Shown piece after piece: positions 35,421-59,800 of a stretch of 64,000 bases of DNA. Both the position numbers and the translations under genes were made by a program. This DNA is from Takakia lepidozioides (lineage: Eukaryota > Plantae > Bryophyta): NCBI GenBank assembly GCA_030704615.1, contig CM060733.1:42160001-42224000 (forward strand), written 5' to 3'. The stretch's first letter is position 1; each line of letters begins with the position of its first letter. Under the pieces are notes generated by a model. The model did no database searches and was not told the DNA's origin. It worked only from the letters and a program-made list of their open reading frames with translations.

Positions 35421-35801
35421 GCACTATTTTCCGGAAATGAGTGTCCGCGGGAATAGGGTTTAGGGTGCCACGGTCATAGGGGGAGAAGGACCTCCCGATG
35501 AAGGAGGTTCGGCAATGTTATTTAGAATTATATATTGAAAGGCAATGTTTCGCGAATGGTAGGGTGGTACTGCTCTGTACAATGGGGGCCCATTTCAGCC
35601 TACCAGCCATTTGCAAAATTCACCCACACTCCCAATCCCAAACGAAATGAGCAATGACGCATTCTCGGAACGATGGACACAGAATAGAATAAAAAGAGGG
35701 CACAATGAGGTTTTTATTGATCCACATGAATTGCATTTGAAGCACGTCTACTGTGCTGATTGTGCCCTCAAATCTTGAGCCCTGTGCCTACTGAATACAA
35801 G

Positions 35802-36365
35802 TCACGTTGTCAATGGGACTTCGACTGCTCTCAGAACTAGCTCATGAGTCCTGGGGCTCCTCCATGTAAAGTCGATTGCAGCCGTTGTACCGCCCCTAGT
35901 GATGTTCACCACAATGTCCTGCCCTTCAATCATACCACCATCGAATATGGAAATCTTCACGTTTTCGTCGTCCACACCAATGCGAATGTCCCCATACAAT
36001 GGAGAAGAGGAGCGCACTCCTCGAGGAGAATAGGTCTCTCCGATGGAGTCCACCCACGTCCAGTGGCAGCAGTTCCACCGCAACAGCATAGCAGTGCGCC
36101 TTCTTCTGCATGGGTGACCGTCGTAGCTGGGAAAATCGGAATCGAGGATGCGCAGGAGCCACGGACTCCTCAAACCAAGATCGTCACCCCGCTCGAAGGC
36201 GTAGTGGCCTACGATATACTCAAAAGCCACCAATGTTTCCACAATCGAACCAGTATCTTCTGTGTAATCTGTGTACCAGATAACAATGTCTCCCGATGTG
36301 GCCGAATACATTGCATAATCGATGCCTCCAAAGGGGCAGTCGTCCCGGTTCCGGAAGCACGGCAT
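35802..36365 (-). CDS. MULE cargo protein X (187 aa)
   Basis: Near-identical to 28892-29455. Confidence 0.7.
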   Translation of the reverse strand: MPCFRNRDDCPFGGIDYAMYSATSGDIVIWYTDYTEDTGSIVETLVAFEYIVGHYAFERGDDLGLRSPWLLRILDSDFPSYDGHPCRRRRTAMLLRWNCCHWTWVDSIGETYSPRGVRSSSPLYGDIRIGVDDENVKISIFDGGMIEGQDIVVNITRGGTTAAIDFTWRSPRTHELVLRAVEVPLTT

Positions 36366-36987
36366 CCTTGCAAAGGAGGACCTGAGGACGACTTGGATGC
36401 CGATGACCTTGCGGACAGCTACGAAGCCCTTAGATTTTGGAAAGATACGAAGCGGAAGAGCAGTCCGGCCTCCAAAATGGAGCATCTGGGTCACACGTAC
36501 CCACCGACGGAGGTGGAACGTGTTCATCACGCCAGCGGTGGATGAAGCCATACATCTTTCTCATCAACAAGTTATAGTTTGAGATCTGCCACCGAAGTCC
36601 ATCCCCCCGGATGAAATTCGGCGCCGCATTTACATCGAAGAGGGGATGGACTTCGTCGTGTCCAGTGGCTATCGGCCCACCTGGCAGTGACTGCCCATAG
36701 TTTGCATGGCAGGGTAGGAAACTGAAACGGCTACATTCATGCAGCAGCCAATCTTCATCGGTCCAGGATCCTGTAGGGGAAATTTAAATGTGCCCTGGAG
36801 TGTGCCCTGGAATGTACCTCACTTCTGTATGACTGTGTTTCATTGTGTTGAATAACTCTCGGATTTGGCCCACTGTTTACAATTTGATGTCTCATTTCTA
36901 CAATTTGTCTGTCTGGTTGAATAAAGCAGAGTAACCGGTATGTGAGTCATGTGTCAAGAATATACCAGAGTAACGCCATGTCGGCAT

Positions 36988-37760
36988 CGAAATGCGGCGC
37001 CGCATTTCCAAGTCGGGATCGAAATGCGGCACCGCATTTCCATGTCGGACATCGAAATGCGGCACCGCATTTCCATGTGGGACAAGAAAATGCGGTGCAT
37101 CATTTCCGTCCAGGTACACGAAATACCAACACGGGTCTATAAATTGATCAGAAAACGAGGTTGGCATTGCAAATGCGGCGACGCATTTCCAGCTTGGCAA
37201 TGGAAACTTCTTTTTGGACAAGGGAATGCGGTGCCGCATTTCCGTCCAACACTTCGAAAAGTGCACCTATTTCCGACCAGCGCGATGGAATGCGTTACCG
37301 CATTTCCGAGAGAGGGTCTGCAAATTGACAAATTGCGATGTCCGTTCTGGAAATGCGGCGCCGCATTTCCATGTCCGTCATCGACTTTTTTTTTACAATG
37401 GAATGCGGTGCCAGTTTTTGTTGATGGGTCTGCAGTTCGAACAACCACCATCCCCAATATGGAAATGCGGCACCGCATTTCCAATCCCGCCATGTCGGCC
37501 TCCTTGTTCGACCTCCTTGTTCGACCTCTGTAAGCGTGGTGGCATCCATGCAATGAGCGGGAGAGGCCAAAACTGGCGTGTGGACAAAGGAAATTTTGGA
37601 AATGCGGCACCGCATTCCCAATTCAGATTACTTTTTACTATGCCAACATTGAAATGGAAAAATTAGTCCCTCCCCTGTTTTGGAAATGCGGTGCCGCATT
37701 TCCAAAAGAGGTTCTTAGAGTTGCCAAAATTTTGGAAATGCCCTGTCCCATTTCTGATTT
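36988..37760. repeat. Irregular cluster of 22-bp palindromes downstream of the ParB-MTase gene (copy 3)
   Basis: About a dozen palindrome variants. Confidence 0.85.
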
Positions 37761-37891
37761 TGGGAGCGTCCTGGTTTGGGCGATTGTGTGGCTGGAATGC
37801 ACACTGGAGAGGGGTCACGAATGTCGGGCAGAATTTTCTTTATATACTCTGGAAGAGAATTTACATTTACAGAGACTTCATTAAAATTCTA

Positions 37892-40800: not shown

Positions 40801-43016
40801 CAGCCACCGTGTCTGCCATTTCCGATCCAATGTCAGTGGCTGGAAGAGAGTGGCTATTGCTAGGAAGGAAATTCAGTGCATTGAAACCTCACCTTCTCTT
40901 TCGCCTCCACACATGCCGTTGAGAGGTGATGCAGTTTCTCCAATTGCATGGTCGGCTGCATGGCCCGAGAATAGTGTTTTGCAATCTCGGGGATGAAGTC
41001 CTTTCCAAGTGCCGGATCTGCAATTGCCACCAGCTTCACAAGCTTTGACTTGTATTTGGTTCTGGACTTGACACCGGCTTCCTTCAAGTGCTCAGTCAAT
41101 GACTGCAACGTTTTGACCTGCCCCTCACTTTCCATGAAGAAGCGTTTGGCATGGGCCAAATCCAGCTTGATGTTTGACTGCCAACAAAAACATGCAGAAG
41201 CGTTACATTCGATTCATGTGGAAACATTACTGGAAATTGGGGAAGGATGAGCAGAGGGAAATTGGAGCACGACTTACTTCGTATATCACCTCCACCATTC
41301 CATCCATAGTGAGACGATACCATGTCCGGTCTGTTTTTGCAACGGCTTTCTGAATGAGCTCCGGCTCCAGCATTTCCGCAAACATCTGCGGATCAGTAAG
41401 ACCAGTTTTCCTCACCCTGTACAGCATATGTGCCATGTGGGTATGCACGTACGCATTCTCAGTGACCCTGCAAGGCACACTCTCCAGTTCAGTACACGGA
41501 AGCACGGAATCAAACCAGAATGGAAACCGAAATGCGGCACCGCATTTCGAATGTGCTAGGGAGGGTATGAGTATCTTACGAGTTGAGGTCCGCCATGGCA
41601 TTCTTGAGGAGGGAGGAGTCTGCCGCCTTCACCTTGAGGATGACACACTCCACCATGTAATGCCAGCCAATGTGCTTGGCATGGTTCTGCTTGATGTACT
41701 CCCACCAGGCGAGAAGTCGGTGATTCCCGTCCCACACAAAGAACATTTTTCCCGACATATGGCCGAAGTCGGGATCACCCTTCAGCGTCGCCTCGAATTC
41801 GTGGTTGCGAGTGTGCCAGTGGGTATCCCACGTTGACAATTCATCGGCAGTGGGTCCACGGGTTTCGCCGTCCTCATTCTCTATGGAAACGTAAAACGCT
41901 GCCGATCCCAGACGGTACCCTTCTCGAAATGCGAACTTGAGCTTATCCACATCTCCGGGAAGGGCCTGCCTGACGATGGGAAGGGAGACCATGCGACAGA
42001 GTGGGATTCGAAGAGTCCGCTGGAATACCCTGCTGCCCAGAACTCTGCCAATGCTACTGTGTGTCTCCTCCAACATTTTATCCGCTGCACTTTTGAAATC
42101 CTCCGGAGACATGTCTGTAGGTGCCGGTAGTGGCTGAGCAGGTGGAGCATCCTCAACTGGAGCTGCACTCTGGGGCCTGTGTGCGGGCAATTCTGCCACT
42201 GCAGAGGCCTCCTCCGGGCCTGCTAGCTCATCGGTGGTGAGGTCTGCCTGCGAACGTTCAGCGGCAGCACCCTCCTCCGGTACCAAATCGAGATCAACGG
42301 TCGATCCCATTGCCTTCGCTGCAGCAGAGTCGGCCCCAACATCTGCAGGCGGGAAATCCTCCAGGAACTGAGCTTCAGCTCGTGGAAGCGGTTTTGCGGG
42401 AGATTGTTCGCCCGTCGCCCTGATTGCCTTCTGCTTCCTCATCCTTGCAGGTGAAGGTGTCTGCTGCAATAGAATCTGTCTTCTACCCTGCTGCTTCATT
42501 CGCGTTGGGGGGGGTGAATCGGCCTGAGCCGGTTCAGAAGCCAGTAGAGGGACGGGCTGCTTCTTCTTCGACTTTGCTGGAGAAGGGCCCGACCCCTGCT
42601 GGCGATTCTCCATGATCGAAGAACGCGAGTCGATCTCTGAGACTTTGAACTTGCCCTTCGAAGACGCGTCTTTGAATCGCAGAGGGCTAGGCCCGGCAGG
42701 AGTACCCGCGCTCGGGGATCGGGTGGGTGTACGTGCTGCAGCTAGCTCCTCGGACTCTTCCTGCGGCTCTTCGGATTCCTGCGATCCCTCCAGCACGTCC
42801 ACCTTTCCTGTTAGGCATGCAAACATGTTCTGCATTCAAGTCTCCTAGCATTCAGTCTAAGAATTACAGAAGCAAAATGGGGGGTTCGGTGCTCGATCAG
42901 CTGCGCGCAGCCCGATCGCATGGAGCTCTCACTGGTGGCTGGGTTGCCTGAGTGGCCTGCTGCTCGGAGATGGCAATCTCCTCCTGTAGACGCATCTGCT
43001 TCCTCCCCTTCGGCAT
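37892..43016 (-). CDS. Predicted 10-exon gene (~1,407 aa): ParB/Srx-like domain fused to a beta-class N6A/N4C methyltransferase-like domain
   Basis: Exons 43016-42933, 42829-41580, 41467-41278, 41177-40893, 40839-40693, 40609-40392, 40245-39126, 39028-38764, 38661-38466 and 38360-37892; all introns GT-AG and phase-consistent (exon 1 least certain). DGNHR at 41717-41731; DIPD at 39372-39383; VLDLICGT|GASMWAGRFSDRHLFAYEED across intron 8. Confidence 0.75.
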
Positions 43017-43452
43017 TGGCCTACGTCCGAAGTATAATTTCCGGAGCTTGCGACGAGGTCTCCTGTCTGGTGCACGAACTCCCCCCCTCTCAGGTTCGAG
43101 CATAAGAAGAACAGAGAGAGGGAAAAGGGGCAAAGAGTGCAGATGGAAAGGGCGCGAGAGGGGTGACTGAGGAGACACGACAAAAGTAGATGAAACGGCG
43201 GTGATGCACCACTTGGGTTCGAAAGGTTGGACGAAAGTGTCTCCTCGTGGAGTTTGCGTCATTACGAAATTCGAATCGTTGAGGGTACGCCCGCCGTCCG
43301 AAAATCAAACATCATTATCCAACGGTCAGGCCGCGCCGCCTCATGCCCCTTCAGTCAGATAGAGTGCCGACATGTGCAGCAATTCCGTTGCTCCACGTGT
43401 TCACATTTCAAGGCATTTCCGTCCCAGCGTCTGATGAGTTGGAGCGAGAATG

Positions 43453-45157
43453 CGAATGCGGCGCCGCATTTCCGTTAAGTACCATCACTCTGCTACACAT
43501 CCGTACTTGTTGGAAGAAAATGCGGCACCGCATTTCCGTTCCACCTTCACATACCTTAGTTGTTGAACGGAAATACGGTGCCGCATTTCCGTCCCACAGC
43601 TCCATGTATGAGATTCAGAAGGGAAATGCGGCGCCGCATTTCCGTTCCCACTTCACATACGTTAGTTGATGAATGGAAATGCCGTGCCACATTTCCGTTC
43701 GGGAAAGTATAGAGGTCTCACCTGGACAGAAATGCGGTGTCGCATTTCCGGTCTGGAAAGGTTGAAGGTCTCACATGGATGGAAATGCGGCAACACATTT
43801 CCGTAGCACAGCTCCAGGCCGAATATACAAAACGGAAATGCGGCGCCGCATTTCCGTTCGAGAATGTCGGAAGGTGCGACTCGAACGGAAATGCGGTGCC
43901 GCATTTCTGTACCCGTTGCGCACGATTTTCAGTCAGAATGGAAATGCGGTACCGCATTTCCGTTCTGTAGAGTATTAACGTCTGACGCTGGCGGAAATGC
44001 CTTCCCGCATTTTCGTTCCACAGCTCCATGCCTCACATACAAAACGGAAATGCGGTGCCGCATTTCCGTTTTGGAATGTCGGATGGTGGGACTCCGACGG
44101 AAATGCGGTACCGCATTTCAATTCCGATGTTTCAGGATATTTCATCAGAACGGAAATGCGGTGCCGCATTTCCCTTTTAAATCTAATACATTCCGTTCTG
44201 GAATGTTGGGAGGTGCGACTCGGATGGAAATGCGCTGCCGCATTTCAGTTCCGATGGTTCACGATTTTCAGTCAGAACGGAAATGCGGTGCCGCATTTCC
44301 GTTCTGGAATGATGGTAGGTGCGACTCGGATGGAAATACGTTGCCGCATTTCAGTTCCGATGGTTCACGATTTTCAGTCAGAACGGAAATGCGGTGCCGC
44401 ATTTCCGTTCTGGAATGATGGTAGGTGCGACTCGGATGGAAATACGGTGCCGCATTTCAGTTCAGATAGTTCACGATTTTCAGTCAGAACGGAAATGCGG
44501 TGCCGCATTTCCGTTCTGGATAGTGTGAATGTCTCAACCGGTCGGAATTGCGCTGTATGAAGCTGTCGGAATCTTACTCGGCTCCAGGCATCAGATACAA
44601 AATGGAAATGCGGCGCCGCATTTCCTTTATGGAATGTCGAAAAGTGCGACTTTGACGGAAATGCGGTGCCGCATTTCTGTTCCCGTTGTTCATAATTCTC
44701 AATCAGAACGGAAATGCGGTACCGCATTTCCGTTCCACCTTCACATACCGTGCTTGTTGAATGAAAATGCGGTACCGCATTTCCGTTCTCGAGAGTATGA
44801 ATGTCTTTTAAGGACGGAAATGTGCTGCAGCATTTCTATCCCTCAGCTCCATGCATCAGATACAAAATGGAAATGCGGCGCCGCATTCCCGTTCTGGAAT
44901 GTCGAAAAGTGCGACTCGGACGGAAATGCGGTGCCGCATTTCTGTTCCCGTTGTTCATAAATCTCAATCAGAACGGAAATGCGGTACCGCATTTCCGTTC
45001 CACCTTCACATACCGTGCTTGCTGGATGGAAATGCGTTACCGCATTTCCGTTCTGGAGAGTATAAAGGTTTCCCCCGGACGGAAACTCGGTGCCGCATTT
45101 CCGTCGCTCTGTTGCATGACCAAGATGCAATACGGAAATGCGGCGCCGTATTTCCGT
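43453..45157. repeat. Array of ~31 22-bp palindromes at a 53-bp period between the divergent ParB-MTase and transposase genes
   Basis: Units every 53 bp in three runs: 43569-44152, 44226-44544 and 44604-45134. Confidence 0.95.
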
Positions 45158-45584
45158 CCACCAGCAATCGACAGAATCACTCGTGACGGGAAATCTGGAA
45201 CCTCAATGGGTTGCATTGTTCCGAAACAACACAATTGCGGCCAGTCTTGATGAGCACAACTTGGTTGTCTGACCGTTTTAACCAGCAGTCCTGGCACTTG
45301 TCAGTGCGAACGTTCCTGTCTGCACCGAGAATACTGCTGGATCCACCCTCAGGAGAAACTGTCAGGAGATGTTATTTCGTCGCCGAATCGGCCATCATTG
45401 TCCTACTCACTGGCTATGGAATCAAACCTCCCACCTTCATGCATGTAGCTTGAAACAATACTTTCCACTTCAATGTGCGACTTCCAATTGTCGATGGACT
45501 CCGCAGATCCACTTAGATGGTGCCTGTGAGCCTTGGTCTGTCGCTATACTGAACCTCGCACTTGCCAACTCCGTGCGGTGTTCG

Positions 45585-48500
45585 ATGGCTCCGAATTCCT
45601 ACGCTATAGTTTGCTGTCCTCCGCAACTTGGGAGAGCCTGGATCCCAAACGAGGGAGGACTTTGCAGAGTGACTGAAACTTACCTTTGTTCCAAATTCAA
45701 GCTCAAACCGGGCACAGTTTATTTGGAAGAAGAAAGGAAGGATGTTCCTGGACAGGTTGACGAGACCATTGTCGTGCTAGGTAACGACGGAGGTTGCGGA
45801 ATCGAATGGCACGTTCCCCCGTCAGACACCATCCTGTACCGAGCTGTGGGAATGCCCATTCCCTTTCCGAATCAGTCGCTGCCCACACCATCCACAAAGG
45901 AGTCCGGAAACCGAGAGGCGGCCACTGCCAACAGAGAGGTATGCAACGATAATCATTCCCGACCTGGACCGTCAAGACCCTCCATAGCTTCTCGTGTGGA
46001 CGTATTCGACATTTCCGACGAGGAAGATGATTGCATTGAGGTACCCATGTCCTCCACACGGTCGTTCAAATCCGGCATGGACGTCTCTGTAGGTGCTACG
46101 CATGTGCCCTCGAGCATAACTCCAACCCGGTCCATTGTGCAGCTCCTACGACAACATCACCTCGATGGTTCTCGCTCCGAGCTGGCTGCTCTCGACTATG
46201 CCAAATTCCCAGTCAGAAAGGTAACTTTTCTGCCTCCCGAAGTCGATGGCAATGTCATCTTCGAGTTTCCACCTGTTTCTTCGTCAAAGAAAGCCTCCGG
46301 GATGTTAACAGACATGGATCGAAAGCATGACGGACACCCCTGGTGTGTGACGAAGACCAGTAGCACGAAAATTGCTGATGGTGTTCGTGTACGATATGTC
46401 CTCTGTGCGGGGAAGCTGAGGTGCCTCAATCCCACCTGCTTCCACTTTCTCTCCAAAGGAGGGCGGAGAAACGAGACGGATTGGACTGGCACAACGCATC
46501 ATCCATTCATTGTCTCCAGCCAAGCTCCTGCGGGTTCTTTCAAGTGTGCACATTGCAAAGAACCACCGACGTGCATGTCCATGTGCAGAGCCAAGCAATA
46601 TTACGTAATCCATTTGCTCCCGGACTTGACTAGAGCTTGCATACACGTTGGGGTCCACTGCCACCCCTTGGCGAGAGGCAACATGCGTGAGGCTGTGCAG
46701 GAAGCACACGACATCATAAAAGAGGAGGTGAAATTGAGCCCCGGAGCCAGACCAAAGCAGATTCAGCTGAAGGCAGCCCACAAGATTGCTCTTGGCAAAA
46801 TCATGTCTGAAGATGGTTCCGACCGAGAGCCCTTGACCGAAGACGAGATGCGTGACCTCTTGGAGTCCGTCTCGCACGTTTGTAGTCCGAATGTGCGGAA
46901 TCACATCGTATCTTGCAAGCAGGAGTTCGGCAGGGGGTCGGACATGTACTCAATCCTGGAGGTGAAACGAATGACTGGATATGACTACATCCAAGGTAGC
47001 AGGTTTCCAGGGCAAGGCAGCGAATCCGATCGTTGTTACATTTTCAAAATGTCGACGTGTGGGCCTGGGAGTGGAGTCGACTTGGTCACTCGCATGACAA
47101 CTGGAAACTTGTCGAATGCTTGGGTGATGTTTGATCACATCAAGCGAATTACAAACCATCAGTGGGTGACTATGGGTGCGCATGTTTATGACTATCACTC
47201 CAAGAGGCTCATGACGATTGCAATCTGCGAGATGAAAGGGGAGGACACACAGTCCGAGATGCATCTGTGGGAGGGCATAAACGAGCAGATGGCAAGGGCG
47301 GGATTGCCAGAGCCCAATTTCAGGGGATTCATGGCAGACAACGCTCAGGCCAACTGGGCAGCGGTGCGGCGTGTGTACGGTGAGGACCCCAATGTTCCAA
47401 TGGAGGGGAAAGAGAGATCCTGTGGATTCCATTGGATGCAGAGTCTATCCCACTACACTACCAAATTTGTTGCTAGCTCATTCCAGGCTGAACACCGTGT
47501 CCTTTGTACGGCGTGGAAGGATGCACCCACATTTGATGACGCGGAGGTTAAGTTTGCTATCATCGAGGCTTGGTGGAACACGTCAGGTGCAGTGGAGACA
47601 ACCAATCTGGGAGCATTGCACAGCTGGTTGGGGTGGTGGCATTTTCGGTATCGACAGTTCGGACAGTACATGCGGGAGGTAGGCTGCTGTCATTTTCGTT
47701 CATTTGTCTTTCTGTTACGGACATTTCGATTGGTCCCTCACCGTTGTTTGTGTCCTTCTAGGAGCGGTGCTTGGATTCCGACACGGACATGCCGAACACG
47801 AATATGGCAGAATCGGTCCACTCCTCCTGGCGAGCGTCTTCTGCCGCACATCTGGTGGACGTAGTGACGGCCACAACGGAGGACATCGACAGAGCAATCA
47901 TGCAGCAAGCCACGTACTACAAGTTCCTGAGCGGCAAACAATGGGGCTTTGGGCCGGACAGGGAGGAATTGTTGGTACGAACAGCTTCGAGGTCCAAGAA
48001 TCCAGTGAAATGGGCGACAGCATTGCGAGAGAAGATCAAAGGGACGCCTCTGCACCGCAGAGGTGAACACCTAGAGGGGGACGTCCGGACTCGCCCTGTC
48101 AGGCGGAGGATTGAAGAGGAACCCGGGTGCGAAGAGGATTCCTGGAGATCCGACAGGAACATTCGGACAGCACCTCGAGGTCCCGTCATGTTGCCGCACA
48201 ATGTGTCTTCCAGCAGTGGAAGCCCAAGAAATTCCAGATCGCCGTCGCCTTCAACCGGGGATTTCGTGCAACAAATTCCCACCGCTCCCTTGCCCCACAT
48301 TCCGCCCGCTGTTATGCAGTATGGCCAAGCCATTGTGGAGACGACTGTGTCTGCCTCACAGTGGAGAATTGCTCGCACAAAGCCGTCGTTTCGAGGAAGG
48401 TGTTCCGCAATTCGTGTGGATACACGGCAACGTTGTTTAGAGATGATAAGGAGGAATCCAGATGGGGCTGTCCCTGCTCCTACTTTTACAGGAAGATTTG

Positions 48501-49192
48501 TCCATGCAAAGTTTGCGGAGGCGACAACCACCCAGTTCTGGTTCTGCAGGCACGACATTATGACTTGCGTGTATGGAAAGCCCAAGTACGGCATACAGAC
48601 AATGCCAGAGGCTCCCCCGGTGTGGCCGGTGGAACCAGGCTGCGATCTGAGTCAGGTTGAGGCCGACGCCCTTACCGCCGCAGGATTTCGGATGGTGCAG
48701 CGCACTGACGTGCCCAGACAACCATTTCCGCTTCCACAGCCTCCACCACCGACCCCTGTGAGAGCAAGAACAATGGGACACGACAGCTCTAAGCATCCTA
48801 CACACCGTTGGGGGAAACCGAAGAGGCGGCGACCTCCCTCAAAAGTGAACGAGACAAGGATGGGGAATGCACTTCGGATGAACTGTACAATCCAGAGCTC
48901 GACAGAAGTGCCCCCACCAGGATTCGGGCGTGTGTATCAGATGGCCACGGCGGGCTCAGCTGTTCGCAATGAGGTGTACACCATCACCATTTCAGAATTA
49001 CCCACCTGCAATTGCACCGACTTCCAGATCATGGCGAACAAGGGGGCATCATACTGCCCTTGCAAGCATTTGTACTACGTGTACCTAAAGAGACTCCGTT
49101 GTAATTCCACAACTCATCACTTCATACATGCACCAGGGTTGAGCCCCCAGGAGGTTCACACTCTTCTGAATATGGATCCAGGGGACCAGTGA
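45585..49192 (+). CDS. MULE/Mutator-like DDE transposase, 2 exons (45585-47678, 47762-49192; ~1,174 aa), with a Cys/His-rich GCM-like N-terminal domain and a C-terminal SWIM finger
   Basis: DGHPW..T.TS...CAGKLRCLNPTC...HVGVHCHP; VMFD, FMADN, CGFH, TNMAES; CNC...CPCKH; phase-0 GT-AG intron; no stops. Confidence 0.88.
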
Positions 49193-49934
49193 GCTTGGCT
49201 TGCGGTCCACATACAATGGTACGCCCATCGGATAGTAGAACTGTACTGCTGCCAGTACCTCAGACTCTGGCCACACAAAGGTCCGACATATGTCTTGCCT
49301 ACCAGTAACCTGTTTTGATCGAACTAAGATATTACTATATCGTTCACTTGTTTCCACGTGCATGTATTTTTGTATGTTGGAGGGTTCATGTTTTTCTGCT
49401 TTCCGAAAACTTGCTCTCCTCATTCGACCTCCGACAAGGAAATGCGGCGCCGAATTTCCAAGTATCGTCGTAGGTACCCCCAGAGGCGGCCTTCGCCAAC
49501 ACCAAACCGCTCCGAAATTTCGCACGTGCGAACCCTAATGCGGCACCCTATTTCCCAGTTCAGTTGCAAACCTTTCCCGCCGAATACCCGAAGAAGACAG
49601 AATTGTGAAGTACTGCAGACTGTATTGGTGCAGACTCCATTGGTTCAATCGCGGCAAAAGGGTCAGCTTCATTCCAATGTTAAGGCATGTAAAACCGCGG
49701 AATACTCTATACAGGCCAGTATGCGACGTCCTTTTGCAGTGGTATACTGGATTTCCCGTTGCACGGTCACTTATTTCCATGAGCGGATCTATAAAACCAT
49801 GAGCGGACTTGTTACTGACGACATATCTTCGCCGCATTACATGATCTGGAACGTCCAAAAACGGCAAGGTCAAATAAAAAACTATTATTTTAATACTTGT
49901 TTAATCTGCCGCATTTCCAAATTTGGAGGAGTCC

Positions 49935-50037
49935 GCTCATGAAATCCGCGTATCTTAGACTTCGGCTCACCGCTCATGCGGCTCATGCGGCTCATGGCTC
50001 ATGGCTCATGGTTTCTGCTCATGAAATAGTAAACCTC
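49935..50037 (-). repeat. Right TIR and subterminal heptamer repeats
   Basis: GCTCATG tandem repeats followed by GAAATAGTAAACCTC. Confidence 0.88.
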
Positions 50038-51930
50038 TCCCACTGCCAGCACTAGTAGTGGAGCAGGTAGTGCTGGTACTTCTGCAGGTGGTACCAGTTC
50101 AAAAGGTGCTACTACTCCTCCTGCCACAACTACAACACATGTGCCTAGATTCAACCCGGTGGTGGAGTTCTTCCAGGAGTTGCGGAGGAATTACCAAGGT
50201 GTACGGACAGAGAAGCTGCGAAGTTTGCAAGACTTCCAGCGCAAACCCAGTGAGAGCTTGCGAGAGGCGTACACTCGTATGAGGCGCTTGATAAGTGTGA
50301 CCCAAGGGGTTACTGAAGCTCAGGCAATCCAGTTTTGGTATGGAATTCTGGACAAGGAGCTCAAGAGAAGGGTGCGAGATGCAACCCTGTTACAAGCAGC
50401 CCAACCCACATTAGCAGATGTGTTTCTGCTGGCTGAGCGGATTGAGCTCAACATGGTGGAGGAGCGAGCGAGTTGTTACAATTGGATTTGGCAAGGACAT
50501 GCCTGTACGGGGCACAGCTGTCAGCCCACAGGCACAAGGGACTGCCCAACAGCGTGGTCAGGGGGGCAAGGTTGCCCAGCCCAAGTTCCATGGAGCTTAC
50601 AGGGGACCTCAGGTGCAGAGGCCCGTGGCATCTTTTGCAGGCCAACAGCAACCAGGGGTGATATGTTGGACATGTGGAGGACCCCATGTCAAAGAGATTG
50701 CCCAGAGAATGGCAGAAGGCCGGCACAAGCACAGCCTGCACAGTTGCAGTGTGGGCATTGTGGCAAGTATGGGCATGTAGATGCCCAGTGTTATGACTTG
50801 CATCCTGAGTTGCGCCCAGGCCAGTTCCAAGGGAACAATGGTGGCCGGGGGCGAGGTGGACCAGCCCAAGAGGACGAGGTGGTCGGGCACGAGGTGCAGG
50901 CCAAGGGCAAGCTCCACATGGCCAAGGACGCGGAGGTCAGGGTGTTGACCAAGGCATGGCCAATCGGCTTCAGCAGCTAGAGCAGAGGCTCGCTGCCATG
51001 GCTATAGCTCAGGCGGTACCGGCTCCCAGGCGGGATGGTCCACCTCCTGCTCCTGAGGGAGGAGATATGGGAGGCATGGGATTCATGTGCGGAGCAGCAC
51101 TACCACTAGACAGGTGGAGTCTGCTGCAGCCGTGACTCGAGGAGCAGCACGAGTTCCTGAGCCACGAGGTGCAGAGGTGGAGTTGGATCCACAACGTGGG
51201 GAGGCAAGCCGTCAGGCGAGGCTGCCTCAGTCATTCACCTTGGCGGAGACAGTGTCAACGCCATCCATGGCACCTAGTTCTCGTCCGACTGTTACAAAGG
51301 CGGAGGTTACTATGCCATTGGGGAGAGCTACACGTGCAGCACTGACACCTGCTACCAAGGCTAGTGCAGCCGGTGTGTTATTGGGGGCAGCCACCTCTGT
51401 GTGTCAAGCCCCACTGTTCTCGGCAACCATGATTGCGACGCCGGGGGTGAGACCAGCTGCAGTGTTCAGACTAGCAGCAACACTCTGTGAGAGTGGGGAG
51501 GTCACTTCATCTTCTGCGGAGTTAGTGGAAGGTATAGTGGCAGAGGGATCCTCGGATTTGAGGGTCAAGACTGCCACGGCTGCGCCATGGCAAGTTGCAG
51601 CTGCCAGGTTGACGGAGCTGCCAGCTAGGCCAGCCTTGAGCGCGCCATGGTGACACCTGGAGTTGTCTTGTTAGACAACCAGGGAGGCATTTTCACTTTG
51701 AGTGGACCGGCAGGCAAGAAGTACCGGCCACTGCGGGTCTTGTTGGACTCAGGAGCTCAGCCACTGATGTGGGCAGAGCTGCTATTGCAGGTTTGGGCCT
51801 CATGGAGGCGGATATGGAGCCTTGTCCTTTCCAGATACAGACATCTCTGGGAGGATCAGAGCAGGCTCGCGGCATGACACGGCATCAGTTGGCTATTAGA
51901 CTGTAGCCAGATCATCCTGTAGATGGCTCA
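50038..51930 (+). pseudogene. gag-pol: Rest of gag (two zinc knuckles) and protease of element C, frameshifted
   Basis: FQRKPSESLREAYTRM; CWTCGGPH; CGHCGKYGHVDAQC; VLLDSGAQPLM; stop at 51904. Confidence 0.8.
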
Positions 51931-53706
51931 GTGATGCGAGCCAAGGCCATTGTGACAGACGCGGTCTCTTACGATGTCCTCGTTGGTGGGGCAGTGTTAT
52001 ACCCCATGGGCTTCACCCTGGATTTCTGGGAGGAGTCAGCATCCTACAGGCCTGGATGGCAGTCAGGGGATGGTCGCCGTGCACAGCTCCCTGTGACATT
52101 CATTGGGGGTATTGCGGCTGCCCAGCGGGGCAAGATGCCAACACTAGCCGCCTTCACAGCTGCAGTTAGTTGGCCTGGAGAGTTGCTGGAAGGCAATGCC
52201 CATGCAGAGGATGTGCCACCTCCAGCAGAGCAGGATGACATGCATGGTACGGCGGAATTGCCTGCCATGGTTGCTCACACTCCGTTGTGGGGTACGAACA
52301 AGGATTTGCAGCAAGCTGCTGATGGACGGGTGCAACAAGCTTGGGTAGAAGCTTTTGTACCGTCAGGAGAGGAGGAGAGTGCGGTGATTGCACCAGGGCC
52401 ACCTCAGTTGTCGCCATTGGATACCACACCTCTTGTGTGGCAGCGGCCGGATGAAGGCATTTGCCTTCTGGACTTGTTTGGCGGGATCAGCACCGGATTG
52501 GCTGCTGTGCTACAGGCAGGTGTGCGGGTAAGGCGTTACCTGTATGTGGAGAGGGATGAGACTGCACGACGCATCTCACTGCGCCATGTGGCTCAGTTGG
52601 TACAGCAGTACCCTGACTTGTTGCCGGTGGCTGCAGTTCGTGGATATCAGCAGGCCTTGCCAGCAGACATTGCGTTGCTGGGGGCGCAGGATTTGGAGCG
52701 GGTTGGCTCCATTGATCTGGTAGTGGCAGGTTGGCCCTGCCAAGGGCATTCATCAGCCGGGCATGGCAATGGATTGCGAGACTCAAGGACGGGTCTGTTT
52801 TGGGAGATGGTGCGGATTTTGCGCCACTTGCAGCTTCATCAGGCTGTATCTCTGGCATACATCTTGGAGAATGTGCCACTGATGGGTGATTCTCGGGCCA
52901 GGGTGATGGCCAGTGTGCATCAAGTCCGGTCGTGGCTTGGATCAGCAGTTTTGCTGGATGCAGCTGCAGTGGGGTCACGGGCTCATCGTCCACGGCTTTG
53001 GTGGACTAACTTGATGCCACCCGCACTGCTCAAGCGTGCATTTGATGGGGTGCAGCGCCCAGCACACCTCACTGTGGATGGCATTTTGGACACAGGAAGG
53101 CAGTCTCAACGTGTGAGACACGATGACCGTTCGCCTTTGGCAGTGGTCAACAGGGTGGGTCAACCACGAGCAGCATTACCTACACTGCTCAGCTTCCCAG
53201 GATCCCATGCTTTTCGGGATGGTGGACCTGGCCTCCTGTGGGATGCTCAGTTGCAACAGTTAGTGGAGCCTAATGCCGACGAGCGAGAGCGGGCTATGGG
53301 GTTTTCCACTGGGACCACGGCGGTGCCTTTTCTTTCTGAGGCATCACGGCGTCAGGTGTTGGGGCAAGCAATGGATCTCAATTGCTTGACCTGGATTATC
53401 AGCTTGGCTATGGCTGAGCAACGTAGAGTGCGGAGTGCACTTCCCTTGATGGTCTCTCTGCCTACCGAGACGGTACAGGCAGCGAGTGGGGGCGAGCCGG
53501 TGAGGACCACGGGGTGTAGACATCCATGGCACATGTGGGAGGTGCTCGAGGTTCAGAGGGAGTTGGCAGCCAAGGCAGCTGTGATGGATGAGGTTGGGGA
53601 TTCTTCTCGGGATGAGGAGGTTCTCAATGATGAGATGATGGGGCAGGATGAGGCCTTGTCATTGACTGAGCAGGAAGGGAGTACTGCTCAAGAGGTTGCA
53701 GCATAG
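51931..53706 (+). CDS. Protease C-terminus plus DNA (cytosine-5) methyltransferase domain (~52450-53430)
   Basis: Motif I LLDLFGGISTG, II YVERD, IV VAGWPCQGHSSAG, VI ILENV, VIII AHRPRLWWTN, IX ERERAMGF, X VLGQAM. Confidence 0.92.
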   Translation: MMRAKAIVTDAVSYDVLVGGAVLYPMGFTLDFWEESASYRPGWQSGDGRRAQLPVTFIGGIAAAQRGKMPTLAAFTAAVSWPGELLEGNAHAEDVPPPAEQDDMHGTAELPAMVAHTPLWGTNKDLQQAADGRVQQAWVEAFVPSGEEESAVIAPGPPQLSPLDTTPLVWQRPDEGICLLDLFGGISTGLAAVLQAGVRVRRYLYVERDETARRISLRHVAQLVQQYPDLLPVAAVRGYQQALPADIALLGAQDLERVGSIDLVVAGWPCQGHSSAGHGNGLRDSRTGLFWEMVRILRHLQLHQAVSLAYILENVPLMGDSRARVMASVHQVRSWLGSAVLLDAAAVGSRAHRPRLWWTNLMPPALLKRAFDGVQRPAHLTVDGILDTGRQSQRVRHDDRSPLAVVNRVGQPRAALPTLLSFPGSHAFRDGGPGLLWDAQLQQLVEPNADERERAMGFSTGTTAVPFLSEASRRQVLGQAMDLNCLTWIISLAMAEQRRVRSALPLMVSLPTETVQAASGGEPVRTTGCRHPWHMWEVLEVQRELAAKAAVMDEVGDSSRDEEVLNDEMMGQDEALSLTEQEGSTAQEVAA

Positions 53707-53844
53707 CAACCACGGGACGCGTCCTCTACCTCTAAGCCCACTGGACTTAAGGTTGCAGTTACGGAGGACAATTGGGAGCCTGACATTGGACCCATTGTCA
53801 CTGGAGGAGAGAGACGACGTATACGGCAGTTCCTGAGGGCTTAC

Positions 53845-56838
53845 ATGAATTGCTTTGCCTTCAGTTTGAAGGACTTGGGAGCGCTGAAGGGTCAAGAGAT
53901 CCGTATTGAGTTGGCCACTGACACGCCAATATTTCGGAGACCCTATAGATACAGTGACATGGAGAGGTCTTTGATTCAGATGAGGACTCAAGATCTCTGG
54001 GAGGCAGAATTGGTGGAGCTCTCTGGTGGAGAGTATGCTTCAGCCACAGTGATGCCAGCTAAGAAGGATGTCTATGGCAATTGGACGGAGAGACGTATGT
54101 GCGGTGATTACCGGCCTGTAAATCGTCAGACCAAGTCCGATAGGTATGCCATGCCGACACCAGAGGAGATCTTTGATGCCATTGGGCATTCCAAGGTCTT
54201 TAGCACGTTGGATTTACGATCCGGATATCACCAGTTGCCGATCAAGGAGGCGGATAAGCAAAAGACGGCATTCTGGGGGATCAATGAGCACGGGAAGGAT
54301 TGCCTATACCAGTGGCGGTTCTTACCATTTGGGCTTAAAAACGCTCCCGCTGAGTTTCAAAGAGTCATGGACAGGATTCTAGCAGGGGTGGAGTTTGCTC
54401 GGTGCTACATAGATGACATCATCATCTTTAGTGCTACGGTGGAGGAGCATGAGAGACACCTTCAGGGGGTATTTGAGCGCTTGAGGACGCACGGATTGAA
54501 GTTACATCCAGGCAAGTGCAAGTTTTTCCACAACCAGATTGAGTATCTGGGTCACATGATATATCCTGGAGGATTGGGGGTACAACAGACTAAGGTAGAG
54601 TCCATTGCACAGGTTCCACGCCCCACGGATGTGAGCCGAGTTCGAGCTTTCATGGGGTTAGCAAACTATTACAGACGGTTTGTTAAGGGATTTAGTGCCA
54701 TTGCAAAGGCTCTAACCAAGCTGACCAAGGTGGACCAGGAGTGGCAGTGGGAAGATGAGCAAGAACAAGCTTTTCAAGAGCTCAAGGCGAGGTTGACCTC
54801 GGCGCCCATCTTGAGACGACCTATCAGGGGGCGTCCTTTTCAGCTGCATACAGATTGGAGCATGCTGGGGCTTGGAGCGGTGCTCACACAGGTAGATGAT
54901 GAGGGAAGAGAGTTCGTAGTGGCTTATGCTAGCCGCTCGAACAATGCTGCAGAGTCTAAGTATAGCTCATATGAGGGAGAATGCTTAGCTGCAGTGTGGG
55001 CCGTGGCACACTTCAGGTGCTATCTATACGGCAATCTCTTCACCCTTGTCACGGATCACCAACCACTCAAGTGGTTGATGGAGTCAGACAAGCTTACGGG
55101 GAAGCTTGCACGGTGGGCACTCATCCTTCAAGAGTATGACTTTCAGGTGGTGCATCGACCGGGTTTGGTCAATCGCAATGCAGATGGGTTGAGTCGCAAT
55201 CCATGCACGAGCCAGCAGGATGACACTGGAGCTCGGTGGCATGGTGAGACGGACGAGGAGATGGTGCCCGGATGGCATGCATCTGCATTTCTGTGTATCT
55301 TGGCAGCGGAAGGCCAGGTTGGACCTGCAACAGGGATGACTGTGGATCAAGTGTCTGAGGACCCTGAGGCCAGCAATGAAAAAGGTGGCGCCAAAGATAT
55401 ACATGAGGATTCAGCTGTGTTGGACTATCTTCGCACTGGAGACACGGCAGCCACTGTGACTGCCAAGGAGAGGGATCGGATCCTACAACGAGCCAAGAGG
55501 TTCAAGTGGGAGGGGACACACCTGCTCCGAGTGTGGGAGGATGGTCGAGTGAGGATTGTGCCTCACCCAACACAGCGGGCACGGTTAGTGCGGCATGCCC
55601 ACGAGGAGTTGGGGCATTTTGGGGTGCGACGCACCCATAGCCTACTGCAGGGGCAGTATTGGTGGCGTGGTATGCACACAGAGGTGCAACAATTTGTGGC
55701 TAGGTGCATGGTGTGTGACAGGGTGCGTGCTTCATTCAACGCCCCTACTCCACAATTGCACCCTCTTCCGATCATGGGATTGGGCTACAGGTGGAGTCTT
55801 GACTTCGCAGGGCCGTTGCCACTGACCATGCGCCACAAGTACGTGTTGGTGAAGGTGGAGCACTTCTCCAAGTGGATTGAATTGGTTCCATTGCCTGATA
55901 AGGCTAGTGAGGGAGCTGCGTATGCATTCTTGGATTGTGTGCTTAGCCGATTCGGTGCTCCAGCTGAGGTACTCACGGACCAAGGGAGAGAGTTCTTGGG
56001 GGAGTTTCAGGCTTTGTGTGACAAGGCCTTGATAGACCACCGCACCACTTCTCGGGATCATCCTGAGGCCGATGGCTTGGCAGAGAGAGTTGTTCAGACA
56101 GTAAAGAGGGGTTTGCGCAAGTATGGCTTGCAGAAGGGACACCTAGGAGATTGGGACCTTCAGTTACCCTGGCTAGCCATGGGCTACAGGTTCAGCAAGC
56201 AAGCATCACTTGCCTCCTTCTCACCATACTTTCTTCTCTTTGGCCGAGAGCCGGATTTGCCTACATCCATTCGCAGAGAAGCTGCTACAGTTCTTAACCT
56301 TGACGATCCGCACGTGTGGGCACGTGCATGTAAGCAGCATGCAGAGTTGTTCAAGAGAGTCATGCCCATGGCTTTCGAGAACCTTGCCATTGCACAACAC
56401 CGTGATACGTTGAGGTATGCTACCATACGTGGTGGGGGCTATCGTCCTGGGGTTCGGAGATTCAACCCTGGTGACTATGTCTATCTGCAGCAGACTGCTC
56501 CTACGACCCTGGATGTGACTGCAGGACGTGTTATTTTGAGGGTTCGAGAGGTCTTGCCCTCAGGCGTCTTGGTCTTGGAGGGTCGGGATGGCATAACTTG
56601 GAAGGACCATGTGCGTAATTGTGCGCCATGTCACCTTCCGAATGTCGATGGCAGGATTGACCCAAACCTGGCAGTGGTATCTGCAGGTTTGAGGTGCATG
56701 TTGTGTGGGTCTGCTAAAGGGGCAGCCACCATGCTGGTGTGTGATCGATGCTCTAGAGGTTGGCATATGGGATGCTTGACTCCACCTCTTGAGATGGTTC
56801 CGGATGGGGATTGGTTATGTCCACAATGCATTGGATAG
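53845..56838 (+). CDS. pol: pol of element C: RT, RNase H, integrase, C-terminal PHD finger
   Basis: RMCGDYR, LPFGLKNAP, YIDD; TDWS..GLGAVL; HHCC, SLDF/LTDQGREF/GLAER; CMLC...CDRCSRGWHMGC...WLCPQC. Confidence 0.95.
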   Translation: MNCFAFSLKDLGALKGQEIRIELATDTPIFRRPYRYSDMERSLIQMRTQDLWEAELVELSGGEYASATVMPAKKDVYGNWTERRMCGDYRPVNRQTKSDRYAMPTPEEIFDAIGHSKVFSTLDLRSGYHQLPIKEADKQKTAFWGINEHGKDCLYQWRFLPFGLKNAPAEFQRVMDRILAGVEFARCYIDDIIIFSATVEEHERHLQGVFERLRTHGLKLHPGKCKFFHNQIEYLGHMIYPGGLGVQQTKVESIAQVPRPTDVSRVRAFMGLANYYRRFVKGFSAIAKALTKLTKVDQEWQWEDEQEQAFQELKARLTSAPILRRPIRGRPFQLHTDWSMLGLGAVLTQVDDEGREFVVAYASRSNNAAESKYSSYEGECLAAVWAVAHFRCYLYGNLFTLVTDHQPLKWLMESDKLTGKLARWALILQEYDFQVVHRPGLVNRNADGLSRNPCTSQQDDTGARWHGETDEEMVPGWHASAFLCILAAEGQVGPATGMTVDQVSEDPEASNEKGGAKDIHEDSAVLDYLRTGDTAATVTAKERDRILQRAKRFKWEGTHLLRVWEDGRVRIVPHPTQRARLVRHAHEELGHFGVRRTHSLLQGQYWWRGMHTEVQQFVARCMVCDRVRASFNAPTPQLHPLPIMGLGYRWSLDFAGPLPLTMRHKYVLVKVEHFSKWIELVPLPDKASEGAAYAFLDCVLSRFGAPAEVLTDQGREFLGEFQALCDKALIDHRTTSRDHPEADGLAERVVQTVKRGLRKYGLQKGHLGDWDLQLPWLAMGYRFSKQASLASFSPYFLLFGREPDLPTSIRREAATVLNLDDPHVWARACKQHAELFKRVMPMAFENLAIAQHRDTLRYATIRGGGYRPGVRRFNPGDYVYLQQTAPTTLDVTAGRVILRVREVLPSGVLVLEGRDGITWKDHVRNCAPCHLPNVDGRIDPNLAVVSAGLRCMLCGSAKGAATMLVCDRCSRGWHMGCLTPPLEMVPDGDWLCPQCIG

Positions 56839-59800
56839 TGGGAGTGGATACAACCATGGAAGGCTAACAAGCAACGCAAGGCCCAGCTACAGGATACCTT
56901 GAATACACGAAGTCCTGGCTCAAGTTCACAGATTGCAAGACGGCGACTAACGATGGGGCTACTCTTGTACCCGGCCTCTTGGTCTATAGAGTTTGAGTAC
57001 GATAGGGACAGTGATAGAGGACTTAGTACGGCTATGGCTATTACGTCTTGTAGCTATCTGGAGGTAGAGGGACCTATCCACCAGCTAGGGGGGCGATTGT
57101 GGTAGACTACTTTATTGTGCATATATGTGTGGTGTGGTTCGGACAGCGATGTAGTTGTGTAGCGATATGTATGCGCACGACATCTTCAAAAAAATTAAAA
57201 CTAATATATGATGGAGATAAATTAAATGGACACGTGTCGATCAGTGACACGCAGCGGAGAGGGCGTAGGCGCATGTGCACAACAACCTTAGGCTTCCTTC
57301 TCTCCTGTCGGCTGCAATTCGTGGTGACATTGTGCTAGACAGACAAAAAGAAAGGGTTGTGCGCTCAGTGGTGCAAGCATTGTGGCCCATAGGTTTTGAA
57401 GCTTGCAGGACGTGACAATGGAGAAGCGTAGATTGAGAGGGAAGGATGGCAACACAAGCATGGCGGCCCATAGGTTTTGAGAGACATGATGGATAGGCAG
57501 AATACAAAAAATAAGCAGAAAGATATGGAGCAGGTGGGAGGTCTCTCGACAACCAGTTGATCTCCTTAACAAACCAGCCACAACAATCATGGTGCTTCTC
57601 AACTACTTCTCAAAATCTAAAGGGCATCTGAAATTCAAATATGATGTAACTGACAGCAAGTGGATAAATATAAATTCGATTATTAGTTCAGTTACTATGA
57701 GATGTGATTTTGCTCAAAACTTTTATACTTTAAATAATGCTGATGCATCTACTTTGGATAAATTTGTTTCCAGCAAATAAAAAATTCATTACCCCGTATT
57801 TTAATTTTCAGGTTAATATAGGGTGTCCAATATTTGTTATCTGCTATCAAATATAAATAATATAGCCTACAAGAAAATATGTCATATTACAAAATTATGT
57901 AATAATAGGGTGGCCAAAAATCCAGAAAATAAAATTAATACCCCCATAGAAAATGCCTATTTGCCTCACGTGCCTAGGAAACTAGATAGGGAGTGACCTC
58001 CCCGAGAAGAAATGTCAGCCTCTGCAAATTTCTCCCTTGCCACAGCACTTACAGTATTTCAAGCCACTGGACCGACCATATTGCAAAACAATTGTCTGTT
58101 GGTCGAGCTGGGGATAGGTAACATTGATGATATAGAATGATCACATCAGCACCACAGGAGATAAAAAAGAAGAACAAACCCAAACCCTAGCAATGGGGAA
58201 ATGCGAGAGCTCTCTGTATCTTCAACATGCAGCCCAGGCTCCATCTGCTCTTAACTTCCATCTATACTCCTGCATCATTGCAAGGAAACACACCATTGGC
58301 AAAGTCCATCAGTGAAGACTACGTTTGCGTCTCTATCATCCCCTCACAAATAGTTGCAAGGGTTCCTAACAAATAGGCAGAGTGAGGAGCTACCCGACAG
58401 ACCTCTCTAAAAACATTCCAATTACACACGACCTCGAGTTGTGGGGCTAAAGAAAAGATAGACACCGAAAAAGCTCAAGTCAAGTCAACAAACTACAAAA
58501 GAACAAACTAAGAGTTGTCTGGCCTGCATAGTGCACTGTAATAGCCAACATTTATGTTCTAAGTTCAAGTACATGTTGTATGTCTAACCCATAACCTCAT
58601 CACAAAATAGCACTTCCCTCTATGAAAGAGTTCATATGACAGTGAGGTGACATTACTAGTGCAAAACCTGATGCAATCTGTAATTACACAATGCAATGAT
58701 ACCTTCAGTCAGAGCTTCAATTTGAGAAGATGAATTCTGAAAGAGAAATAAAGGAGCTGGTGGAACGGAGCAAGAAGGAAAATGGAGCCCTTGGCCAGGA
58801 ACTAAGGCAAGCCTTGCCAGCCAGGCCAGTAGCAGAGTTTAAGGTTAGATGATGGGGTCAGTTCAATCATGTTGGAGTCGTGCAGAATGTCCGAACAAAA
58901 GTTAGGCATAAAACCCTGAATTCGTTTCCAGTTTGTGACATAGGTGGGGGGAAGGGCAGTCTTGGTACTACTGATATTTAAGTCCAAAAGTGGGACTTAC
59001 CTTCATATAAATAATTAATTCAGGTTTTCCACATTTCCTCCAGCAAGCTCTTCACGCAAACATCAATCTGCTGTGTGCGAGCTTCCTAGCAATTAGACCC
59101 CAGCAGGACCCAAGCTTTATGTTCAGCCTCAAGATATTGCAATTTGGCGAACAAAGATGCAGCAACTATGTACCTCATGGTCATAAAGAGCGTCACTCTC
59201 TAGCTTTTTTGGGGGACAATGGCATGGACGGAAAGCCCGTATAGACAACCATCGTTGAGTGCCATTGCTATGCTAAGAAAATCCACAGAGCTCAAGACAC
59301 CAATAGTTAGGAACTACTGAACTGAAATTTCTTCTATTCACCATTCAGAACAACAACAGACTGCTTTCCTCCCTCGCATACTTTCCGAACATGCCAGTAA
59401 GTGCCAAAGATCTTGTAGACTCCCTCTCTTGCTCCTTGTTCGGAAGTGGTACCCATGGTGGAAGTGCCTAATTTTATCAGCCGTGCTGTTGCTGCTGCTT
59501 CCAATTGACCATCTAACGTTCAAATTTCTTATAGCTATTACTCCACATTGCCTCACTCTTGTGCTCGTAATGTGGTCGCCTTGGAGCCCCGCAGAGAAGC
59601 TAACCCGAGAAAGAGAGCGCACAGCCACCGAGGTCTCTGGTTTCCTAAACCTAAATTTCTCTTATCTCTTGGATAAGTGCAGGTTCGGGGTTCAATTCCT
59701 GCTATGGCCTGTGTGTATGGTTTGTTTGTCGGTATGGGGTGACGGTTCCTCTTGTGATATATGAAACTGAGGATAAACTTTCCTCCTCCGCAAGGGCTTT

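Follow-up and report, generated by a model that had tools for sequence, protein, structure and literature searches.

Gypsy retrotransposons that carry a cytosine methyltransferase or a histone reader have been described from several green algae. KnitGypsy-Dnmt3 of Klebsormidium nitens joins a DNMT3 to a Gypsy element with DIRS-like repeats (de Mendoza et al. 2018, PMC5890265), and elements of the same kind are named streptophyte 'Gypsy-DNMT3' in a preprint (bioRxiv 10.64898/2026.05.21.726589). PHD fingers in retrotransposons are well known (PMC6673714, PMC9940879): in Chlamydomonas, Gypsy-7a_cRei has one in its polyprotein, which has been proposed to steer insertion, and its insertions are intergenic 2.6 times more often than expected (PMC9940879), and REM1 is another PHD-bearing Gypsy. 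The pairing of writer with reader is not itself new, as long terminal repeat (LTR) elements with a DNMT, a DAM domain and a chromodomain, the EpiLTRs, are found in Cymbomonas and Euglena (bioRxiv 10.64898/2026.05.21.726589). Here we analyse a stretch of 64,000 nucleotides from the bryophyte Takakia lepidozioides (contig CM060733.1, positions 42,160,001 to 42,224,000; hereafter the window, in whose coordinates all positions are given) that holds a Gypsy copy with both a DNMT3-like methyltransferase and a PHD finger.

We read this element as a dead copy of an old green-lineage Ty3/Gypsy family in which the DNMT is supplied at capsid level by way of a leaky UAG stop and likely methylates the element's own complementary DNA (cDNA), and we give this reading a probability of roughly 0.55. 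The enzyme would be made with every Gag protein and packaged at capsid level, a rarer readthrough product would supply reverse transcriptase (RT) and a PHD-bearing integrase, and the DNMT would methylate each new DNA copy before insertion. The lineage is old and abundant and is common to liverworts, peat moss and green algae. What is new is the likely supply of the enzyme at Gag level, the breadth of the family over green plants, a model liverwort included, and its odd ends. The role of transposon-borne DNMTs was left open by the 2018 paper, whose hosts are hard to work with genetically (PMC5890265). One host of close relatives is the model plant Marchantia polymorpha, for which methylation mutants are available, and self-methylation of the cDNA is therefore directly testable.

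Organization and state of the window copy

Pfam finds DNA_methylase (E = 1.6e-12) in the frame 51907-53703, and RVT_1, RT_RNaseH, Integrase_H2C2, rve and PHD (PHD E = 1.3e-10) in the frame 53707-56835. The two frames are in register, with a single TAG between them. The domain order Gag-protease-RT-RNase H-integrase, with an RVT_1-type RT and an HHCC/DDE integrase, is that of Ty3/Gypsy elements, and at the integrase C-terminus, where the chromodomain of a chromovirus would stand, Pfam finds no Chromo domain and the PHD finger is present instead. The parts of the copy are as follows.

34381-35013, plus strand: 5' leader remnant; the actual 5' end (repeat A) falls within a 500-N gap at 33881-34380
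35014-35337, plus strand: N-terminal part of gag, 77% identical to residues 1-94 of the Marchantia relative P0003
35338-50036, no strand assigned: nested 14.7-kb insertion in gag; its ends are inverted, and the 8-bp target duplication CTCCCACT stands at both 35330 and 50037
50037-51640, plus strand: remainder of gag with the CCHC region (Retrotrans_gag E = 0.0014)
51632-52089, plus strand: aspartic protease, DSG motif at 51740-51760 (LLDSGAQ at 51740), frameshifted near 51769
52450-53430, plus strand: DNMT3-like C5 cytosine methyltransferase, open frame, all catalytic motifs in unrearranged order
53704-53712, plus strand: conserved in-frame stop TAG CAA CCA, which ends Gag-protease-DNMT, in a readthrough-type context
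53717-53820, plus strand: predicted RNA stem-loop 3' of the stop, 53717-53734 pairing with 53802-53820
53707-56838, plus strand: second open reading frame (ORF2), 1043 open codons, with RT, RNase H, integrase and PHD
about 53914-54576, plus strand: RT, within ORF2, YIDD at 54406
about 54739-55146, plus strand: RNase H, within ORF2
about 55564-56226, plus strand: integrase, HHCC and D-D-E present
56695-56829, plus strand: C4HC3 PHD finger at the integrase C-terminus, without aromatic cage, with Asp after Cys3 and a P-x-G-x-W pocket
57087-57097, plus strand: polypurine tract, the same tract as in relatives
57098-57182, plus strand: terminal repeat B (TG...CGACA), 85 bp, the 3' end of the window copy; contig depth drops beyond it

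The window copy is dead, its gag being split by the 14.7-kb insertion and frameshifted, and the DNMT and ORF2 are still open. Gag residues 1-94 are encoded at 35014-35295, far upstream of the rest of the gene, and the remainder is frameshifted near 50692, 50868, 51109 and 51635, seen as frame switches against relatives and as indels against other copies. Because copies in the host runs differ by single-base indels at the breaks in gag and protease, these breaks are private to the window copy. At the equivalent place in the intact relative L039 Asp_protease_2 is matched with E = 2e-4, below the curated cut-off. Other host copies continue past repeat B with GCTGTCA at 57182.

A preliminary description of this DNA had placed a methyltransferase between protease and RT and a C4HC3 PHD finger after the integrase, and the Pfam matches, together with the location of every motif it named, bear this out. 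It was too narrow about the extent of the element: gag starts at 35014 and resumes only after the interruption at 35338-50036, and the element runs on to a 3' end at 57182. The methyltransferase does lie in register between protease and RT, but the in-frame TAG at 53704-53706 separates it from the latter. The idea of a writer and a reader in one element stands in the sense that both are present, but they are on opposite sides of a conserved stop.

A conserved stop codon downstream of the methyltransferase

In-frame stops are known from SIRE1, Tca2 and MuLV (PMC2194720). For the stop in the window, no variant of at least 2% is listed at 53702-53712 in 459 contigs of one host run and in three further runs, covering at least three labelled organisms or samples; positions 53700, 53701, 53713 and 53714 do vary. 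A stop followed by YAR-YY occupies the homologous place in 32 of 35 DNMT-RT junctions, the other three being divergent and open. The invariance in the runs and the 32 of 35 junctions rule out a mutation specific to one copy. Many database proteins also terminate at the homologous position. The strict sequence CAR-YYA follows the stop in eight of the 32 (the window and seven others), in four spellings (CAA CCA, CAG TTA, CAA TCA and CAA CTA) whose second encoded residue differs, and the non-strict junctions deviate at +6, at +1 or in the stop codon. The intact relative L039 shows the arrangement in full: Gag-protease-DNMT of 1369 codons, TAG CAG TTA, and RT-RNase H-integrase-PHD of 1047 codons.

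UAG-CAR-YYA is the type I readthrough motif of plant viruses, the tobamoviruses (PMC3542737). The stop is a feature of the family, with a site of the type I readthrough kind, UAG-CAR-YYA followed by an in-frame downstream ORF, and programmed readthrough at it is likely from the sequence context. With the conserved TAG placed after it, the DNMT forms the last part of the Gag-protease ORF, and its production at Gag level is likely. A leaky stop on the far side of an epigenetic enzyme would tell how much of the enzyme the element wants, and where.

The predicted stem-loop begins about 12 nt past the stop, and five of six folds have z scores of -1.9 to -4.1. Its arms are wholly different between two lineages: pairing within a lineage is worth -11 to -27 kcal/mol, whereas in an arm-swap duplex test the pairing of arms from different lineages is weaker (-5 to -15 kcal/mol, mostly -5 to -9). 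For the window, the cognate arm is the best of 1522 sequence windows.

The same features bear on the alternative that the stop is a true terminator and that RT, RNase H, integrase and PHD come from an RNA that is spliced or started internally, as in Candida Tca2, which we judge improbable. A TAG can act as a splice acceptor, the Tca2 layout is likewise gag-stop-pol with a junction reported to direct de novo expression of pol (PMC2194720), and the peat-moss-like family leaves the strict motif at +6. On the other hand, intact copies keep the two frames in register on either side of the stop, the bases at +1 to +6 track CAR-YYA while the encoded residue varies, the stem-loop stands about 12 nt past the stop, and ORF2 has no conserved AUG (in L039 and L072 no Met precedes codon 117). 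An ORF2 that was spliced or internally started would still leave the DNMT at Gag level.

The methyltransferase is DNMT3-like and has been retained under selection

The DNMT carries the following motifs, which align with human DNMT3A; the motif numbers are those that we take to apply.

52468, plus strand: motif I, LDLFGG
52729, plus strand: motif IV, GWPCQG
52864, plus strand: motif VI, LENV
52981, plus strand: motif VIII, AHRPRLWW
53281 and 53350, plus strand: motif IX/X, ERERAMGF and RQVLGQAM

A profile of the family DNMT built from 33 members scores human DNMT3A at 92.7 bits, DRM at 65, and M.HaeIII, M.HhaI and DNMT2 at 40 or less. The AlphaFold model of the domain (pLDDT 92.6) finds DNMT3A, DNMT3B or DNMT3C in all Foldseek rows listed, with a best E of 3.6e-20. 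The DNMT of the family is thus DNMT3-like in sequence and in fold, which settles in favour of DNMT3, and against a bacterial enzyme, the choice posed by the preliminary description. A viral or bacterial donor finds no support, viral contigs giving only 19 weak phage-type methylases, 23-49% identical over short stretches.

Nearly all motif-IV matches (255 of 259) retain the catalytic Cys, 148 of them as PC and 99 as EC, and motif I, which binds S-adenosylmethionine, the catalytic Cys, ENV and the arginines of motif VIII are kept among sequences that are only 32-50% identical. The ratio dN/dS of the DNMT is 0.06-0.23 in nine of 15 pairs, those with finite dS, and 0.13 in the sole unsaturated pair; six of the 15 pairs are saturated at synonymous sites. 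Its tree agrees with that of the integrase: over 50 elements, 12 of the 16 starred DNMT branches recur in the integrase tree, and the patristic distances in the two correlate with rho = 0.54, a value reached by none of 999 permutations (seven candidates were dropped for coverage, and loci with in-frame stops were excluded from alignment A2). The agreement between the trees and the dN/dS values therefore indicate that the DNMT has long been carried by the element under selection. Neutral evolution and a one-off insertion, both of which the preliminary description had allowed for, are excluded, the former by purifying selection (dN/dS 0.06-0.23) and the latter by the many loci and named genomes that carry the methyltransferase.

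From this pattern of conservation the DNMT is probably catalytically active. The DNMT3s carried by transposable elements (of the DIRS type) in Symbiodinium are active and methylate CG, and SymbioDIRS-Dnmt3 did so de novo in yeast (PMC5890265). It is quite improbable that the domain no longer methylates and persists as a DNA-binding or structural part of the particle. Such a role would suit the inactivity of the K. nitens domain in yeast (PMC5890265) and the replacement of PC by EC in motif IV of the chlorophyte type (99 of 259), but it fits poorly with the Symbiodinium enzymes and with catalytic residues kept at 32-50% identity.

An old family with two layouts

The DNMT search returned 60 longer and 189 near-length relatives, of which 120 are listed, and host names come from named entries. 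The named DNMT relatives are from Marchantia polymorpha, M. paleacea, Riccia, Calypogeia, three Sphagnum species and Closterium, with identities to the window DNMT of up to 75% among the full-length matches listed. The integrase-PHD search gave 371 matches, Volvox and Haematococcus included; cluster look-ups add Coleochaete, Hariotina, Scenedesmus and Closterium, Coleochaete with ORF2 only and no DNMT seen; and a profile search gave 541 clusters at 50% identity with E up to 1e-30. Among the 120 integrase-PHD matches listed, 50 have the DNMT in the same ORF, 33 start at most 400 residues from the RT, their upstream ORF being out of view, 36 are fragments and one is without DNMT.

Two layouts are found. 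The DNMT stands before the RT in the first, whose named hosts are all streptophytes, and between RNase H and integrase in the second, whose named hosts are all chlorophytes. In a FastTree phylogeny of the DNMT, built without a host-DNMT3 outgroup, a single branch (support 90, unstarred) splits the two layouts into 31 and 89 rows, and the window DNMT falls in a starred group with liverwort and Sphagnum sequences, a placement that makes a bryophyte-grade land plant the likely host. Contig depth in the host runs is hundreds-fold above the flank over 51,000-57,200 and similar for DNMT and RT, summed contig depth not being the same as copy number. One 5-kb contig from a second organism covers DNMT through PHD. 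Contigs of run X6 also cover the element; the RNA nature of this run is a guess, and it is uninformative on expression.

These observations leave hardly any room for a one-off captured or neutrally decaying methyltransferase gene in a Gypsy copy. The window copy is indeed broken elsewhere, and a relative without DNMT exists (P0277), but the same layout recurs in many loci and named genomes, DNMT depth equals RT depth, the contig of the second organism spans DNMT to PHD, and the DNMT is under purifying selection.

Identity in the integrase region is 71-84% among window, peat-moss-like, liverwort and Coleochaete copies (P0181-P0186, L024, L036), a high value for lineages that parted so long ago. 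Since the pairs tested show saturation at synonymous sites, any horizontal transfer is not recent. Three members are filed under bacteria (P0083 as Obscuribacterales, P0264 as Spirochaetia, P0322 as Synechococcales), and these are likely plant or algal contigs in metagenome bins. In the annotations of Marchantia and Sphagnum, ORFs of the family pass for host 'DNA (cytosine-5)-methyltransferase' genes, and in metagenomes for bacterial ones; DNMT counts are inflated as a result. Two chlorophyte-type integrase-PHD proteins (P0239, P0243) have an extra Pfam match, PF01585, presumably the G-patch domain, and in some members of the chlorophyte type pol is followed by a further long ORF (L069 at 7959-10250; L070 after 3964).

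A PHD finger without an aromatic cage

The closest relatives of the PHD finger in the PDB are CHD4, PHF12, PHD1 of KDM5A/B, ATXR5, DPF3 and BHC80. At what we take to be the position of the cage Trp that contacts trimethylated lysine 4 of histone H3 (H3K4me3), 146 of 149 family PHDs have Gly. The Asp after Cys3 is kept in 134 of the 149, and Pro-x-x-x-Trp is the commonest form of the end pocket, often P-x-G-x-W as in the window. This Asp and this pocket correspond to D312 and to P331/G333/W335 of KDM5A, which bind H3R2 and H3A1, respectively (10.1101/715474). Lacking the H3K4me3 cage, the finger is therefore predicted to read the unmodified H3 tail, binding at its N-terminus. That it tethers the integrase to chromatin lacking H3K4me3 is a suggestion from these residues to which we give even odds.

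Element ends and integration

Relatives open with repeat A (TGTCA...) and close with repeat B (...CGACA). L048 and L059 read A-internal-B-GC-A-B; L036, L068 and the 3' end of the window copy conform to A-internal-B. Two identical direct terminal LTRs were not found in the relatives, and the 5' end of the window copy lies in the gap; self-comparison of the window reveals no LTR pair because of this gap and the split ends. The element is classed by its proteins as an atypical Gypsy. Target duplications of 4 bp flank the element in four of four relative loci checked and, with the TG...CA repeat B and the polypurine tract of the window, give ends of the Gypsy kind. The junction GACA-NN-TGTC is also present in four chlorophyte-type loci.

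Repeat B directly follows the polypurine tract, and the stretch after A is complementary to a site 26 nt past the TATA box inside A, in the manner of self-priming elements. This self-complementary primer site is perfect over 16 nt in three of 13 loci, extends for 8-10 nt in seven and is absent from three (control maximum 10). Reverse transcription should therefore yield an LTR of B+A, which begins at the polypurine tract and extends to the self-priming site. Inserted copies nonetheless open at A and close at B, for which the simplest explanation is a cut by the integrase at the internal palindrome GACA-GC-TGTC. That the LTR is indeed B+A and that the integrase cuts there is, on these sequences, evenly balanced between true and false. 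A one-LTR circle or a doubly cut linear cDNA would then give A-internal-B, and a two-LTR circle A-internal-B-A-B, although the short form could also come from B x B recombination or assembly collapse. The split ends suggest a DDE integrase acting at an internal junction, unlike textbook LTR elements, and programs that search for pairs of identical LTRs would likely overlook the family.

TGCAG-GT motifs occur in the 5' leaders of three distant members (window 34700-34760, L039 at about 930-975 and L047 at about 520-560), and these may mark a conserved leader intron.

Substrate of the enzyme and weight of the evidence

The element's own cDNA, in CG context, is the main substrate of the DNMT with a chance that we put at one half. 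The alternative is an active and abundant DNMT that works mainly in trans on host chromatin, whether in the neighbourhood of the insertion, on other copies or on competing elements. Supply at Gag level would be just as suitable for a diffusible nuclear factor, neither purifying selection nor the intact motifs identify a substrate, and CpG content gives the element no special mark of methylation. Fusion to Gag-protease, or the placement between RNase H and integrase in the chlorophyte type, puts the enzyme beside the cDNA in the particle, however, and we consider action in trans unlikely.

Several observations weigh against self-methylation of the cDNA by a DNMT supplied through a leaky stop, or against parts of that reading. 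Activity and readthrough are predictions from sequence and model. The CpG observed/expected ratio of the element is 0.50, against 0.87, 0.77 and 0.18 for three neighbours and 0.26-0.98 for relatives, so that the element is not singled out. The K. nitens domain gave no methylation in yeast, a result called inconclusive, DNMT3B having failed there too (PMC5890265). Most of the stops, 22 of the 32, belong to one peat-moss-like family, read CAA CCC or CAA CCT and include many near-duplicates. The stem-loop of L021 folds no better than shuffles (z = -0.77), RNAalifold gave no consensus structure over nine sequences, and the co-variation of the arms rests on two lineages. The DNMT of the chlorophyte type lies inside an uninterrupted pol, and supply at Gag level is therefore not needed family-wide; in the relatives P0304 and L079 no stop parts the DNMT from pol. 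At least one relative, P0277 among the 120 integrase-PHD matches listed, passes from protease to RT without a DNMT, and L059 has no clean target duplication. Finally, the PHD of the window lacks an acidic residue just before Cys1, which makes its discrimination of K4me3 uncertain.

The fullest version of the account, a lineage as old as green plants with an active DNMT3 brought to capsid stoichiometry by programmed readthrough, methylated circular cDNA, a DDE cut at the internal palindrome and a PHD aimed at chromatin lacking H3K4me3, is tentative and unlikely in its entirety. If it were true, the combination of reader and writer known from animal DNMT3 (ADD plus catalytic domain) would have been rebuilt within a retroelement, which would arrive pre-silenced.

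Other features of the window

The insertion that splits gag (35338-50036), possibly hAT-like to judge by its 8-bp duplication, bears short GCTCATG/CATGAGC repeats in tandem within each of its ends and carries nested elements; related ends also lie near 17204-17513, 26291-26811 and 28419-29901. An array of about 27 copies of a 53-bp unit with a 26-bp palindrome core occurs at 43397-45159 and at about 10900-12450. The array adjoins a MULE-like transposase with a SWIM finger (45282-49192), and array and transposase form a 6.3-kb unit present twice in the window, inverted and 88% identical. A second, ordinary Gypsy element without DNMT, at 874-4527, served as a CpG control.

Comparison with known systems

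The preliminary description suggested that such an element may be unreported from this host lineage. We found no report of a Gypsy pairing DNMT with PHD, of a bryophyte and chlorophyte range or of the leaky stop, and to that extent the supposition stands, although subscription papers, Repbase, theses, figures and preprint supplements may hold one. In the portions of the sources available, PMC6317226 mentions neither PHD nor Marchantia, and PMC12344493, PMC6453930, PMC6673714 and PMC11982613 report no land-plant Gypsy with DNMT and PHD.

Gypsy-7a_cRei differs from the present family in having no DNMT in its domain legend (PMC9940879), the two being compared by description only. Like the EpiLTRs, the family joins a cytosine methyltransferase to a histone reader in an LTR retrotransposon. 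Unlike it, the EpiLTRs have an enzyme sister to DNMT4, a DAM domain and a chromodomain, and the preprint sets them apart from Gypsy-DNMT3; neither DAM nor Chromo is matched by Pfam in the family proteins scanned. The stop resembles type I readthrough sites in its UAG, the CAR-YYA after it and the in-frame downstream ORF (PMC3542737), and differs from them in coming after Gag-protease-DNMT, with protease and an accessory enzyme upstream, and in the long stem-loop, as at type II sites. SymbioDIRS-Dnmt3 shares with the family a DNMT3-type domain in a retroelement polyprotein and A-coding-B-A-B repeats, but it has a tyrosine recombinase, not a DDE integrase, and was an independent capture according to PMC5890265.

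The strongest likeness is to KnitGypsy-Dnmt3, in the Gypsy domain set, the intronless and unrearranged DNMT3-type domain with conserved catalytic residues, purifying selection on the DNMT, and the DIRS-like split repeats of the form A-coding-B-A-B (here in L048 and L059). No K. nitens protein is named among our DNMT and integrase matches. KnitGypsy-Dnmt3 was reported only from K. nitens, whereas the hosts here range from liverworts and peat moss to Closterium and chlorophytes, and the DNMT here ends the Gag-protease frame, whereas PMC5890265, as available, mentions no leaky stop. A PHD has no mention in its text and supplements, although its Fig. 4c may show one. From the shared ends and the type of enzyme, the window family and KnitGypsy-Dnmt3 are likely one family.

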